This document shows positions 644 through 8,229 of a DNA stretch of 64,000 nucleotides, piece after piece. Both the position numbers and the translations under genes were made by a program. The first letter of the stretch is position 1. Each line of letters opens with the position of its first letter. The notes under the pieces were generated by a model. The model was not told the DNA's origin. It did not search any database and saw nothing but the letters and a program-made list of their open reading frames with translations. The DNA is from Escherichia phage EC100. The stretch is taken from sequence record NC_105587.1; one strand, given 5' to 3'.

Positions 644-719
644 TGGTACACCCACTAGGACTTGAACCTAGAACCCTCCGCTTAAGAGGCGGTAGCTCTA
701 ACCATTGAGCTATGGATGT
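644..719 (-). tRNA. tRNA-Lys (anticodon CUU)
   Basis: Minus-strand cloverleaf: 7-bp acceptor stem (ACATCCA/TGGGTGT), D-stem GCTC/GAGC, anticodon loop CTCTTAA, T-arm CTAGG-TTCAAGT-CCTAG, encoded 3' CCA. Confidence 0.7.
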
Positions 720-896
720 ATTAAATTACTTTTTCCAGTTCATCAGCTATGGCTTTGATTTTTTCAAAGTTTACATCACTAATAATGATACCTTCCAGTG
801 ATAGAGATATTCTAGCATTTTTCGTAGCAGATTCTTTTATCTGCTCTATATCTTCTGGAGTAAACTCTCTACGTTCCATAGCTAACCTACCTTATT

Positions 897-2015: not shown

Positions 2016-2101
2016 AAATTTTGGCAGGGGTAAAGGTATTCGAAACCTTTTCATGGGTTTTGGAGGCCCATTTGCAACCTATGCGTACCCCAATTATTAA
2101 T

Positions 2102-2271: not shown

Positions 2272-2352
2272 ATATTTAGAAGTATTCAAATACTAGTTTA
2301 AACACTTTTAAATATGTTTCCAAATTAGATAACTATTATATCAAGTTTTAAG

Positions 2353-2391
2353 GCACTGAGCAAGTAAGATTTTGAAGAACTTGCTCAGTGC
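2353..2391 (-). terminator. stem-loop with 13-bp perfect stem, downstream of 2400..2675
   Basis: GCACTGAGCAAGT ... ACTTGCTCAGTGC inverted repeat; flanking U-tract weak, so possibly a processing or stability element. Confidence 0.4.
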
Positions 2392-2399
2392 TGTATTAG

Positions 2400-2675
2400 T
2401 TAGTCGAACTTAGGAGTGACAGATAAGGAGAACGGAAGTTCAAAAACTTCTTCACCCTCATTACTAACGGTAACTACACGACCTTTAAGTTCAGACATTG
2501 AAATATCAATATCAGCTTTTGCATCTGGAGACATGCCAGCTTCAACACATTTAGCTTTAACTTCCGGAAGGAGTTCTACATCGTAGAAATAAAGCCATTC
2601 AATCTCACCTTCCCAGCCTTCCCAGGATTTACAGATTGCACTTTCAATACCAGTTGCTATAACACGATTTTGCAT
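2400..2675 (-). CDS. hypothetical protein (91 aa)
   Basis: ATG start with GAAGGAG ribosome-binding site; followed by a 13-bp-stem hairpin. Confidence 0.45.
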   Translation of the reverse strand: MQNRVIATGIESAICKSWEGWEGEIEWLYFYDVELLPEVKAKCVEAGMSPDAKADIDISMSELKGRVVTVSNEGEEVFELPFSLSVTPKFD

Positions 2676-2765
2676 TCGTTAACTCCTTCATCAATTTATA
2701 TAACTATTATACCAGAAATTTAAAGCAAAAGGCAAGTACATTTTTAAAAATTCTGTTCGGAGGAG

Positions 2766-2972
2766 CTAAACTCCAGATTCTTCTGCCAAGTCTAGACTAA
2801 TAAGAGTTATAGCCATAATTGCTGCACCGTGTTCTTTTTCTCCGGTGTTTTTAGCAGAGTCTATAATAGTCTTAATCTGTTCGTAATAGCCTTTTACTTC
2901 TTGTTCAATACCTGCCTCGGCTATCATGCCTTTAGTCATGATTCGTTGCATAGTAATTTCACGGTTAGCCAT
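2766..2972 (-). CDS. hypothetical protein (68 aa)
   Basis: ATG-initiated ORF; its start overlaps the stop of a possible unlisted upstream small ORF (about 2965..3132). Confidence 0.4.
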   Translation of the reverse strand: MANREITMQRIMTKGMIAEAGIEQEVKGYYEQIKTIIDSAKNTGEKEHGAAIMAITLISLDLAEESGV

Positions 2973-3161
2973 GTTGTTTCTCCAGCTTCATTTTTAATAG
3001 TTTACAAATGAAATCAACGTCTTCATCTGTACCTAGATCTCTATCTTCAAGGGTTGCCTTGAAATTTTTCGTTAGTTCCATAAGAATAACTTCCCTAGAA
3101 CGACGTGTTGGCGGAGGTGGATGTCTATACATCTTAATTCCTTAACTTGGTAGGGGTTATA

Positions 3162-3845
3162 TCATCTATTTTTCTTAATACTTTTAGGATCTTTCCCTGT
3201 TAGGGACTTATACCTTTTCCTTAATCCAGTATCAGACAATCCTAGTTCTTTGGAGGCACGAATCCAGGAATATTTAGATACCCAGTACTCTATTTGCTCC
3301 ACAGTAATATCTGGATTTATAGTTATCTCTTTAGGAGTACATGATTTACAGTGTGTTGCTCTTGAGCTAATTTCGCAGTGACAAATAGCACACGTATTTA
3401 CAGTCCTTTCTGTATACCTGCCAATATTTTTGCCTGCATGAGTAGGTGTTAGTGCATGGCAATTTGGGCATAGGAAGGCTAAGTTATCCCATTCATTATT
3501 ATAGTGATTTCCATCCTTGTGTTCAAGTTCTAAAGGAATTGGTTTATCTAACCAACTTTCTAAGCCACAACTCTCACATTTATGTGGTTTTAGCCCCTCG
3601 TTAAGAATTTTATTCTTTAGTTTATAGGAAGAAATAGGGCTGCCGTTATATAAATACTCTGTTGCAGACTTATATTTATTATCATACTGCCTATTCGCAG
3701 GAATAACTACTATTCCTAGTTTTCCTAAATATGCTTCCAAAGTGTTCGAGGAGCAGGATAGCATTCTTGCTATCTCTGCTTTAGATTTTCCCTGAGCTAT
3801 CCACTGAGCTATTTCTTCCTTTCTATCTAGTATATCAGTTCTCAT
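3162..3845 (-). CDS. HNH homing endonuclease with N-terminal helix-turn-helix domain
   Basis: HNH motif region HKCESCG...ELEHKDGNHYNNEWDNLAFLCPNCH plus further Cys/His clusters; weak ribosome-binding site; located inside the tRNA island. Confidence 0.7.
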   Translation of the reverse strand: MRTDILDRKEEIAQWIAQGKSKAEIARMLSCSSNTLEAYLGKLGIVVIPANRQYDNKYKSATEYLYNGSPISSYKLKNKILNEGLKPHKCESCGLESWLDKPIPLELEHKDGNHYNNEWDNLAFLCPNCHALTPTHAGKNIGRYTERTVNTCAICHCEISSRATHCKSCTPKEITINPDITVEQIEYWVSKYSWIRASKELGLSDTGLRKRYKSLTGKDPKSIKKNR

Positions 3846-3868
3846 AGTTTATGACTTTATAATTAAGT

Positions 3869-3946
3869 TGGTGGCTCCCCGAGGATTCGAACCTACGTAC
3901 CTTCCGGTTATGAGCCGGGTGCTCATACCATATGAGCTTGAGAACC
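3869..3946 (-). tRNA. tRNA with anticodon CAU (Met or Ile2-type)
   Basis: Acceptor GGTTCTC/GGGAGCC, D-stem GCTC/GAGC, anticodon loop CTCATAA on a CCGG stem, T-loop TTCGAAT, CCA. T-stem pairs only partially. Confidence 0.5.
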
Positions 3947-3952
3947 AAAATC

Positions 3953-4041
3953 TGGCGGAAGAAGTGGGAATCGAACCCACAAGGCTATATTTCAAACCGA
4001 CAGATTAGCAATCTGCTGCAATACCGTTATGCTATTCTTCC
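3953..4041 (-). tRNA. tRNA-Ser (anticodon GCU), long variable arm
   Basis: Perfect acceptor GGAAGAA/TTCTTCC, anticodon stem GCAGA/TCTGT with loop TTGCTAA, long extra arm, T-arm GTGGG-TTCGATT-CCCAC, CCA. Confidence 0.7.
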
Positions 4042-4062
4042 GAATTTATAAGATATATTATA

Positions 4063-4581
4063 TTAGAAATTTAGCTTCATAGCAAGAAAATTTTTCAAGT
4101 TTTCGGTAGACATCTCATCCACATCTACAGGAGAAACAAATCCATTTAATTTTCTAGCAAATTTTTCACCCGCAGGATCGTTGTCCCCGACAGCTACCAA
4201 TTTAAAAGGTAATAATTTCAGTTGCTTTAATAAGGCTTTTCCTGGAGAAGAACCCAACATTGCCAGGGCTGGATAACCAGCGTTATGTAACGCAACTGCC
4301 TTAAATACAGATTCAGCAATCAATACTACTTTTTCATCTCCATTGAGAGTTTCTAGTCCCCATACACACTGTGTAGTAGAATAGGTAAAATATTTAGCTT
4401 CAAAGGGGCACTTACCATGCCCTTTTGGAGCAGAAGGATTATAAGTCTGATAGCCTCTCAACATCCCAGAGAAGTCATACAACGGGACTGTTAGCCATCC
4501 TTCTGGACTTAACCAGCAATGATATTTATCTGTATCAAATCCCCTAGATAAGAGGTGCTGTGTTAGCTCATCAACATTCAT
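4063..4581 (-). CDS. Toprim-domain protein (primase-like catalytic core without zinc ribbon)
   Basis: Toprim signature VVLIAESVFKA (Glu) ... LVAVGDNDPAG (DxD); start moved to the ATG at 4581, which has a GAGAGAGGAA ribosome-binding site. Confidence 0.5.
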   Translation of the reverse strand: MNVDELTQHLLSRGFDTDKYHCWLSPEGWLTVPLYDFSGMLRGYQTYNPSAPKGHGKCPFEAKYFTYSTTQCVWGLETLNGDEKVVLIAESVFKAVALHNAGYPALAMLGSSPGKALLKQLKLLPFKLVAVGDNDPAGEKFARKLNGFVSPVDVDEMSTENLKNFLAMKLNF

Positions 4582-4756
4582 ATTTGGTTCCTCTCTCAAA
4601 TTTATAGATATATTATACAGAGAATTTAGCATTCAAGCAATCAAATTTTTTAACTTTTTAGAGGAAAATCATAGGGCACTTAAGGGTAGCAGATAAGTGG
4701 TGAGGACCAAAATTTGTGACCCCACTAAAAATCCGGGGGCAATTTTTAAAGACCCC

Positions 4757-8157: not shown

Positions 8158-8229
8158 TACCGACCGTAGGATTCGAACCTACATCTTCCACCAGTTACGG
8201 CTTGATAATACCAATTATACTAGGACGGC
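8158..8229 (-). tRNA. tRNA-like element (degenerate, possible pseudo-tRNA)
   Basis: T-arm GTAGG-TTCGAAT-CCTAC identical to the one in the 1271-1353 tRNA, acceptor stem with one mismatch, no clean anticodon stem, no CCA. Confidence 0.25.

Follow-up and report, generated by a model that had tools for sequence, protein, structure and literature searches.

F-TflIV of phage T5 is named in the title of a 2004 paper by Akulenko et al. (PMID 15456135) as a site-specific endonuclease. That paper is cited in PMC2330249, PMC10644984, PMC3326045 and PMC5714182. The literature found to cite it gives no detail of the F-TflIV cleavage site, and a further paper has the name as a gene description in a table. 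The depositors of the BF23 and phage 5 records marked no such site either, and the literature searched yielded no homing or cross data for the enzyme. The F-Tfl enzymes of T5 have been called homing endonucleases sited in the tRNA gene cluster, and control of their expression through processing of tRNA transcripts has been proposed (PMC2330249). Genes of this kind account for much of the difference among T5-like genomes (PMC10644984). F-TflIV itself has been assigned to group 1 of the His-Me finger nucleases, the one that holds PF01844 and McrA (PMC5714182). The gene, hegA, is already known, as are its name and its activity: all were out in 2004, and the gene is annotated in GenBank. The new part of the present analysis is a comparison of insertion sites for hegA.

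Two other T5 enzymes, F-TflII (HegD) and F-TflI (HegC), resemble HegA in being encoded by free-standing HNH genes that lie between tRNA genes, with the 3' edge in a tRNA gene, and in having a C-terminal module of zinc ribbon and helix-turn-helix (HTH). Their N-terminal halves, in contrast, are unrelated to the LuxR-type HTH of HegA, and their HNH cores are without the CxxC zinc site (...MTKQDH in F-TflII versus LCPNCH in HegA). They also occupy other slots, neither of which falls in the region studied here.

The closest functional analogue of HegA is SegB of phage T4 (PMC2330249). Its gene too stands free within the tRNA operon of a phage, where close relatives have extra tRNA genes instead, and low expression by way of tRNA-transcript processing has been proposed for it (PMC2330249). 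SegB cleaves the recipient genome inside a tRNA gene, and tRNA markers from the recipient are thereby excluded (PMC2330249). It differs from HegA in belonging to the GIY-YIG superfamily, not HNH, and to another phage family. Moreover, homing and the recognition site are known from experiment for SegB, whereas HegA is known here from sequence.

Identity and genomic setting of the gene

The window, by which we mean the whole 64,000-nt stretch of Escherichia phage EC100 that was analyzed, comes from a T5-like phage. Over positions 2300-4700 it shares 95% identity with T5 and BF23, and 100% with Escherichia phages EC104, EC105, EC122 and EC142. The gene and the elements upstream of it are as follows.

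3162-3845, minus strand: hegA coding sequence (227 aa plus stop), ortholog of the T5/BF23 H-N-H endonuclease F-TflIV (from the ORF list and identity to the T5 and EC copies)
3846-3868, minus strand: leader of 23 nt, from the 3' end of tRNA-Ile2 to the hegA ATG, without a Shine-Dalgarno (SD) element (from anti-SD duplex energy)
3869-3946, minus strand: tRNA-Ile2(CAU), directly upstream of hegA and part of its transcription unit (Rfam, 40.3 bits for a tRNA at 3872-3946; missed by ARAGORN)
3953-4041, minus strand: tRNA-Ser3(GCU), first gene of the unit (ARAGORN; Rfam, 60.5 bits)
4057-4085, minus strand: promoter-like site TTGCTA-17-TATAAT, at the position of T5 early promoter P15b (consensus scan, 10/12; the match alone is no evidence of function)

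The ORF list gives a 227-aa frame with an ATG start at 3162-3845 on the minus strand. At the nucleotide level this frame is 100% identical to the 'homing endonuclease' gene of EC104, EC105, EC122 and EC142, and 97.7-99.9% identical to the copies in T5, BF23, HASG4, VAH1 and Sen_I1. The protein aligns without gaps to T5 AAS77121.1, with 224/227 residues identical, and differs from the BF23 copy at a single residue (226/227). The homologous T5 ORF is hegA (T5.075), labelled 'H-N-H endonuclease TflIV' in the record; the BF23 label reads 'H-N-H endonuclease F-TflIV, homing-like endonuclease'. PHROG 14736, 'HNH endonuclease', matches at E 1e-79. Protein length, slot (tRNA-Ile2 to ORF trn2.3) and operon are also the same as for F-TflIV of T5 and BF23. 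We put the probability at roughly 80% that the ORF is hegA, the F-TflIV gene of T5-like phages, and a free-standing homing endonuclease gene. A first-pass annotation, made from the letters and the ORF list, had already called it a free-standing HNH homing endonuclease gene and had noted that T5 is reported to carry homing endonucleases in its tRNA region. Both statements are supported, the former by the 99% identity to T5 hegA/F-TflIV and the T5/BF23 slot, the latter by hegA itself, which sits in the same slot in T5 and BF23. Site-specific endonuclease activity is reported for the 99%-identical T5 protein and predicted for HegA of the window.

The setting of hegA in a tRNA island, another first-pass claim, is confirmed. 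tRNA-Ile2 and tRNA-Ser3 lie upstream on the same strand, and ARAGORN finds seven tRNAs downstream of hegA at 644-2271 (Tyr, Glu, Phe, Cys, Asn, Asp and Lys). tRNA-Ile2 is annotated in T5, BF23 and EC122. At the place homologous to the promoter-like site, P15b is annotated in T5, BF23 and phage 5, and the site at 4057-4085 presumably drives tRNA-Ser3, tRNA-Ile2 and hegA.

The translation start of hegA had been described as weak, and this holds. Pairing with the anti-SD sequence over the 25 nt upstream of hegA is predicted at -0.4 kcal/mol, compared with -6.1 to -8.3 kcal/mol for three downstream ORFs, and no SD element is apparent. In the BF23 record, the ribosome binding site of hegA is annotated as 3 nt only.

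Domain architecture of HegA

Sequence matches, a structural model and an alignment of 50 homologs, drawn from a large protein collection, were used to delineate the parts of the protein.

3720-3824, minus strand: N-terminal LuxR/GerE-type HTH, aa 8-42, the presumed DNA-recognition module (Pfam PF00196, SdiA/RhlR matches, model helices)
3456-3578, minus strand: HNH nuclease core, aa 90-130, of the predicted beta-beta-alpha-metal type and including a CxxC...CxxC zinc site (C90, C93, H109, N121, C126, C129, H130)
3339-3392, minus strand: Cys4 zinc ribbon (C152, C155, C166, C169), read from sequence, with CxxC...CxxC kept in full-length homologs
3198-3302, minus strand: C-terminal three-helix, HTH-like module, aa 182-216 (model helices; similarity to F-TflII and F-TflI)

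At the N-terminus, Pfam PF00196 (GerE/LuxR) matches aa 8-42 with an E of 8.2e-07 and 29 bits, against a cutoff of 23.5, so the N-terminal helix-turn-helix seen at first pass is secured above the Pfam cutoff. The DNA-binding domains of SdiA and RhlR, from PDB sequence matches, align to the same residues, and the HegA model places helices at 9-17, 22-28 and 33-42.

The HNH motif, also seen at first pass, proved complete. C90, C93, H109, N121, C126, P127, N128, C129 and H130 are invariant in the 50-homolog alignment and all are present in HegA of the window, while D111, G112, H114, N116 and N117 are conserved at >=90%. H109, N121 and H130 supply the catalytic His, structural Asn and metal-ligand His expected of an H-N-H arrangement. 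For HegA alone the Pfam HNH match is below threshold (E 0.02): PF01844 reaches 15.5 bits where the gathering score is 21.4, and PF13392 reaches 14.6 bits where it is 24.8, and HNH membership thus rests on the motif together with family context. PF01844 is detected at E<=0.01 in 36/50 homologs, with a best value of 3e-4. These data suggest that the catalytic core of HegA is intact, and nuclease competence is predicted. McrA-type HNH nucleases (PF01844) share with HegA a core in which two CxxC pairs surround H...N...H. The likeness is statistically weak, both in the Pfam score just given and in structure, where the top Foldseek match of the HegA model is EcoKMcrA at an E of 0.16. HegA differs from these nucleases in having two HTH modules and a zinc ribbon, and no modified-DNA reader.

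GerE/LuxR is the sole above-threshold Pfam domain of HegA, and the VAH1 copy is annotated 'luxR family bacterial regulatory protein', as though the protein were a transcription regulator of the LuxR family with a degenerate nuclease-like domain. This is very unlikely in view of the HNH core, whose catalytic and zinc-binding residues are all invariant across the 50 homologs, and of the 99%-identical T5 protein, which was published as an endonuclease. Nor is the HTH out of place in a nuclease, as free-standing homing endonucleases usually target DNA through HTH modules.

The Cys4 zinc ribbon and the second, C-terminal HTH of HegA were absent from the first-pass annotation. In the model, the helices of the C-terminal module span 182-191, 194-201 and 205-216. 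HegA homologs come in two forms, a short one of ~150 aa (HTH plus HNH) and a long one of ~240-260 aa, which adds the Cys4 zinc ribbon and the C-terminal three-helix module; some homologs give double-zinc-ribbon Pfam matches. Over aa 105-225, HegA is 54% identical to F-TflII, with near-identity across the last ~48 aa, and the same C-terminal half is 33% identical to F-TflI. The half made up of the N-terminal HTH and the HNH core resembles other short HNH genes, which lie between other tRNAs in related phages. Because its halves are related to different gene sets, HegA can be regarded as a modular chimera. Within the window, a family profile found only hegA, and no paralogs, among 233 translated segments.

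HegA of the window differs from T5 HegA by three substitutions. F124 (L124 in T5) lies inside the HNH core (NLA[F/L]LCPNCH) and, among the copies examined, is found only in this phage group.

The insertion site and the tRNA-Leu2 relic

The insertion site was compared between eleven hegA+ loci, the window among them, and eight that are hegA-minus; junctions were aligned for 10 hegA+ and 8 hegA-minus sequences. The comparison, which the first-pass annotation had suggested as a check, revealed sporadic presence of hegA at one site, with tRNA-Leu2 and a small ORF as the alternative allele. It defines the following elements.

3158-3859, minus strand: hegA cassette, ~702 nt (from loss of homology versus the hegA-minus allele; edges accurate within a few nt)
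3148-3157, minus strand: relic of the tRNA-Leu2(UAA) 3' end, ACCCCTACCA on the minus strand, at the downstream cassette edge (equal to the acceptor end in eight hegA-minus phages)

The slot belongs to the early tRNA operon and is bounded by tRNA-Ile2 and the homolog of ORF trn2.3. Anchors in its flanks are 730-732 nt apart in hegA+ loci versus 302-303 nt in the common hegA-minus allele, which contains ORF trn2.2* (56-62 aa, function unknown) followed by tRNA-Leu2(UAA). A third allele, with extra ORFs, has an anchor spacing of 838 nt. The slot is thus hypervariable, with at least three allele types. The edges of the cassette are sharp, and 684 of its ~702 nt are ORF.

The final 10 nt of tRNA-Leu2 remain in carriers at the downstream edge (TGGTAGGGGT when read on the plus strand; 3148-3157 in the window). 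Past this relic homology to non-carriers ends, and the hegA stop codon is four nt on. At the upstream edge, homology to non-carriers is back ~10 nt short of the tRNA-Ile2 3' end. The aligned junctions show that the cassette overwrote ORF trn2.2* together with tRNA-Leu2, of which it spared these 10 nt. The window and BF23 have the relic intact; in T5, HASG4, VAH1, Sen_I1, EH7, S124 and HZ_ZJUN2, and in the second allele group described below, it has decayed progressively. The presence of a decaying relic in carriers shows the tRNA-Leu2 allele to be the ancestral one and the relic to be free of constraint.

The first-pass annotation had further supposed that the nuclease may explain pseudo-tRNAs nearby. 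The 10-nt relic of tRNA-Leu2 agrees with this, as does hegD of T5, the 3' end of which overwrites the 5' part of tRNA-Gln2, a gene marked as a pseudogene in the T5 record. At the hegD place, BF23 has an intact tRNA-Gln2 plus ORF trn2.16*. The supposition fails for the odd tRNA-Trp-like gene at 2016-2101, a T5-type tRNA-Trp allele: its two alleles segregate independently of hegA, and we rejected a link between them.

A mobile end common to hegA and hegD was also considered and rejected. Similarity between the genes stops at the ORF end, with none past the stop codon.

Distribution, selection and a proposed route of spread

hegA was found at >=90% nucleotide identity in 21 phage records, and Stp1 has a more divergent copy, bringing the carriers to 22. 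They span Tequintavirus and Epseptimavirus. By comparison, the flank matches ~450 T5-like records and the tRNA-Leu2 allele 332, so that hegA is present in ~5% of T5-like records and missing from ~95%. Uniform presence in all relatives, which the first-pass annotation took as a sign against a homing endonuclease, is not what these 22 of ~450 records display. In all of the carrier loci examined (11/11) hegA is in the same slot, and the order tRNA-Ser3, tRNA-Ile2, hegA, ORF trn2.3 is found in the window, T5, BF23, EC122, HASG4, VAH1, Sen_I1, EH7, S124, HZ_ZJUN2, HMD-P4 and Stp1.

This distribution bears on another conceivable role for HegA, that of the enzyme making the site-specific single-strand interruptions of T5 and BF23 virion DNA. 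Both phages are nicked and both are hegA+, an annotated nick site is ~2.7 kb away, and HNH enzymes are often nickases. Yet a gene that is missing from ~95% of T5-like records, is early and poorly translated, came in on a foreign cassette and has no link to the GCGC nick consensus is an exceedingly improbable source of these interruptions.

As a homing endonuclease gene, hegA might be expected to have a history of its own, and the identities point that way. hegA falls into two main allele groups, which share ~90% identity. Copies in group 1 are 97.7-99.9% identical, as against 92-96% for the 800-nt flanks of the same phages, which are often nearer to those of non-carriers. Between the window and BF23, for example, hegA is 99.7% identical and the left flank 92.8%. 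VAH1 has a left flank 98.5% identical to that of hegA-minus JLBYU40, together with a hegA 98.6% identical to the window's. The backbone near hegA is ~5% different from T5. Identity among carriers is 98-99% inside the cassette and, after an abrupt drop, ~90% in the first 50 nt outside. These data indicate a hegA history discordant with that of the flanking backbone, as lateral spread would produce, although the gene-flank discordance could also stem from the mosaic recombination that is general among T5-like phages and needs no help from a nuclease.

Two expected marks of homing were sought in the flanks. Binned identity among carriers, which are natural isolates, revealed no co-conversion gradient away from the junctions, so the flanks either lack the classic signature of homing or have had it erased. 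Nor are any flank positions fixed for different alleles in carriers versus non-carriers. Both results would suit vertical inheritance with repeated loss, in which hegA has long occupied the slot and owes its patchiness to deletions and ordinary mosaic recombination, not to homing; T5-like flanks are mosaic in general, and the slot itself is hypervariable. The relic argues otherwise, since it places the tRNA allele first and hegA later. Loss of hegA would, moreover, have to restore a complete tRNA-Leu2 and ORF trn2.2*, which needs recombination with a non-carrier, and among carriers hegA is far less diverged than its flanks. We therefore consider loss from an ancestral carrier decidedly improbable, and favor the arrival of hegA as a homing endonuclease gene.

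Every hegA copy translated (10/10) is an intact 227-aa ORF, and dN/dS is 0.06-0.13. These values show hegA to be under strong purifying selection. Such uniform intactness and low dN/dS are not predicted by a simple cycle of invasion, decay and loss for a purely selfish gene. They are what one would look for in a useful nuclease, retained by phage-level selection either to exclude co-infecting relatives or as part of a neighboring anti-defence island. The location of hegA, inside the tRNA array and adjoining a TOPRIM gene reported as Rad, a retron inhibitor (PMC10644984), fits with this as well. We nevertheless find the idea unlikely as a full account of the gene. Its absence from ~95% of T5-like records means that hegA is not needed for the phage life cycle, and among known defence and anti-defence families HegA matches only ZorE, through a local HNH match. 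Marker exclusion, for its part, is normal behavior for a homing endonuclease, and so overlaps with the main explanation instead of replacing it.

Altogether, the data fit an active free-standing homing endonuclease gene, with its cleavage site and its homing as predictions. A mechanism can be drawn from the cassette data together with knowledge of free-standing homing endonucleases, including T4 SegB (PMC2330249). hegA would be co-transcribed with tRNA-Ser3 and tRNA-Ile2 from early promoter P15b, and its mRNA would be freed by tRNA processing. With no SD element, hegA would be translated poorly and the level of the nuclease kept low. When a carrier and a hegA-minus relative infect the same cell, HegA would bind through its HTH modules and nick or cut the hegA-minus allele, in or beside the segment that the cassette replaces; the best candidate target is the tRNA-Leu2 gene. 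Recombinational repair from the hegA+ genome would then copy the cassette in and delete tRNA-Leu2. A carrier would be immune, since the target sequence is missing from its own genome. Because no flank difference between carriers and non-carriers is fixed, we infer that immunity comes from the replaced 275-nt segment or from the junctions. The placement of the putative target at tRNA-Leu2/ORF trn2.2* or at the junctions is the least secure element of this scheme.

The identification of hegA matters little by itself, and the value added here is descriptive: a base-level map of the replaced segment, a census over two genera that puts the gene at ~5%, and evidence for the hegA cassette as a young, selected, laterally moving unit. 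Going further, HegA might recognize a conserved tRNA-gene element, as SegB does, and with paralogs sharing its C-terminal module might be what makes tRNA genes turn over in T5-like phages. This is a doubtful extension. If true, each invasion would swap a tRNA, here tRNA-Leu2(UAA), for a nuclease, and homing endonucleases would set the tRNA repertoire of the phage and hence its countering of tRNA-targeting host defences. The strong purifying selection on hegA would then reflect a continuing contest between phages, beyond simple selfishness.

T5-like tRNA genes are lost both to nuclease cassettes and to tRNA-tRNA recombination, and these losses are relevant to the evolution of phage tRNA arrays, which have now been tied to anti-defence functions. 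We also considered whether the cassette edge is the starting point of a deletion in a BF23 lab strain. The deletion begins within tRNA-Ile2 instead, and represents tRNA-tRNA recombination.

Divergence of hegA and the makeup of its product

Salmonella phage Stp1 carries a divergent hegA in the same slot as the window copy:

L021 (Salmonella phage Stp1) 1348-2031: hegA, intact, 684 nt

Its divergence was sufficient for megablast, with the ORF alone as query, to miss it, and it is probably the sole tblastn record in the 80–90% amino acid identity band. The Stp1 gene looks like a third allele lineage.

Comparison of HegA with F-TflII (HegD), another HNH endonuclease of the T5 tRNA region, showed that the last ∼48 amino acids are almost identical (window 3198-3302 versus T5, L020, 2898-3050). 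By contrast, the nuclease cores bear only a distant likeness and belong to different HNH subtypes. DNA similarity between the two genes stops at the stop codons. This pattern suggests that these paralogous endonuclease genes have exchanged a DNA-binding module.

Codon 124 (window 3474-3476) encodes F in the window HegA and L in the nine other translated copies. F124 is also found in Escherichia phages EC104, EC105, EC122 and EC142, whose hegA is 100% identical in nucleotide sequence to that of the window. Within the HNH core, the residue belongs to a conserved segment, NLA-L-LCPNCH; the substitution is probably neutral but could affect HegA activity.

Neighbors of hegA

A hot spot separates tRNA-Leu2 from tRNA-Ile2. 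In some phages, including MET_P1_100_107 (L005 2429-3152) and Kenya-K15, three ORFs replace ORF trn2.2* in this slot, and one of the three is annotated as 'antitermination protein Q'. For the phage 5 allele, ∼200 records match the tRNA-Leu2 part only, and therefore tRNA-Leu2 in these records has yet other neighbors.

A further neighbor encodes a TOPRIM protein:

window 4063-4632: longest ORF call, 189 aa, start at 4632, without an SD

A strong SD (–8.4 kcal/mol) accompanies an internal ATG at 4581, and initiation there gives a 172-aa TOPRIM protein, as annotated in T5 (T5.076). This protein is reported to be Rad, an inhibitor of retron defense (PMC10644984), which places hegA at the edge of an anti-defense gene.

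A deletion between tRNA genes in BF23

Two tRNAs called by Rfam are absent from the ARAGORN output, so ARAGORN undercounts the tRNAs of the window:

window 3872-3946, minus strand: tRNA-Ile2, Rfam 40.3 bits
window 8158-8229, minus strand: tRNA, Rfam 35.5 bits

The BF23 lab strain (L007, OR083247) has a ∼4.3-kb deletion that spans tRNA-Ser3 and the TOPRIM/Rad gene, among other sequences. Its junction (L007 3118-3135; window ∼3896 and ∼8164-8181) fuses the T-arm of tRNA-Ile2 with the T-arm of the tRNA at 8158-8229, at an 18-nt sequence common to both, and should yield a hybrid tRNA immediately upstream of hegA. Flanking nucleases have been suggested as the cause of the deletion (PMC10644984); the junction sequence itself looks like the product of homologous recombination between tRNA genes.

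Other variable sites in the tRNA array

A 519-nt ORF (T5.069 / ORF trn2.8) overlaps tRNA-Asn in T5, BF23, VAH1, JLBYU40, phiLLS and LVR16A. Pfam assigns MUG113/T5orf172 domains to this ORF (E 6e-16 and 3e-12), and its JLBYU40 counterpart is annotated as GIY-YIG. At this place the window has a mere 152-nt spacer (1354-1505). The ORF is a second nuclease-like presence/absence polymorphism beside hegA, with the window carrying the 'empty' allele. Another indel relative to T5 (window 644-879) lies between the T5.067 homolog and tRNA-Asp, where the window has these additional features:

window 644-719: tRNA-Lys(CUU)
window 721-879: 52-aa ORF

Between tRNA-Phe and tRNA-Glu lies a further gene, called by neither ARAGORN nor Rfam:

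window 2016-2101, minus strand: 'T5-type' tRNA-Trp(CCA)-like gene, divergent, 71 nt

Relatives have either this allele or a canonical 77-nt tRNA-Trp, and the two are very different. Allele type showed no correlation with hegA. The T5-type allele is carried by T5, BF23, HASG4, VAH1, phiLLS and the window; the BF23 copy has the anticodon ACA, not CCA.
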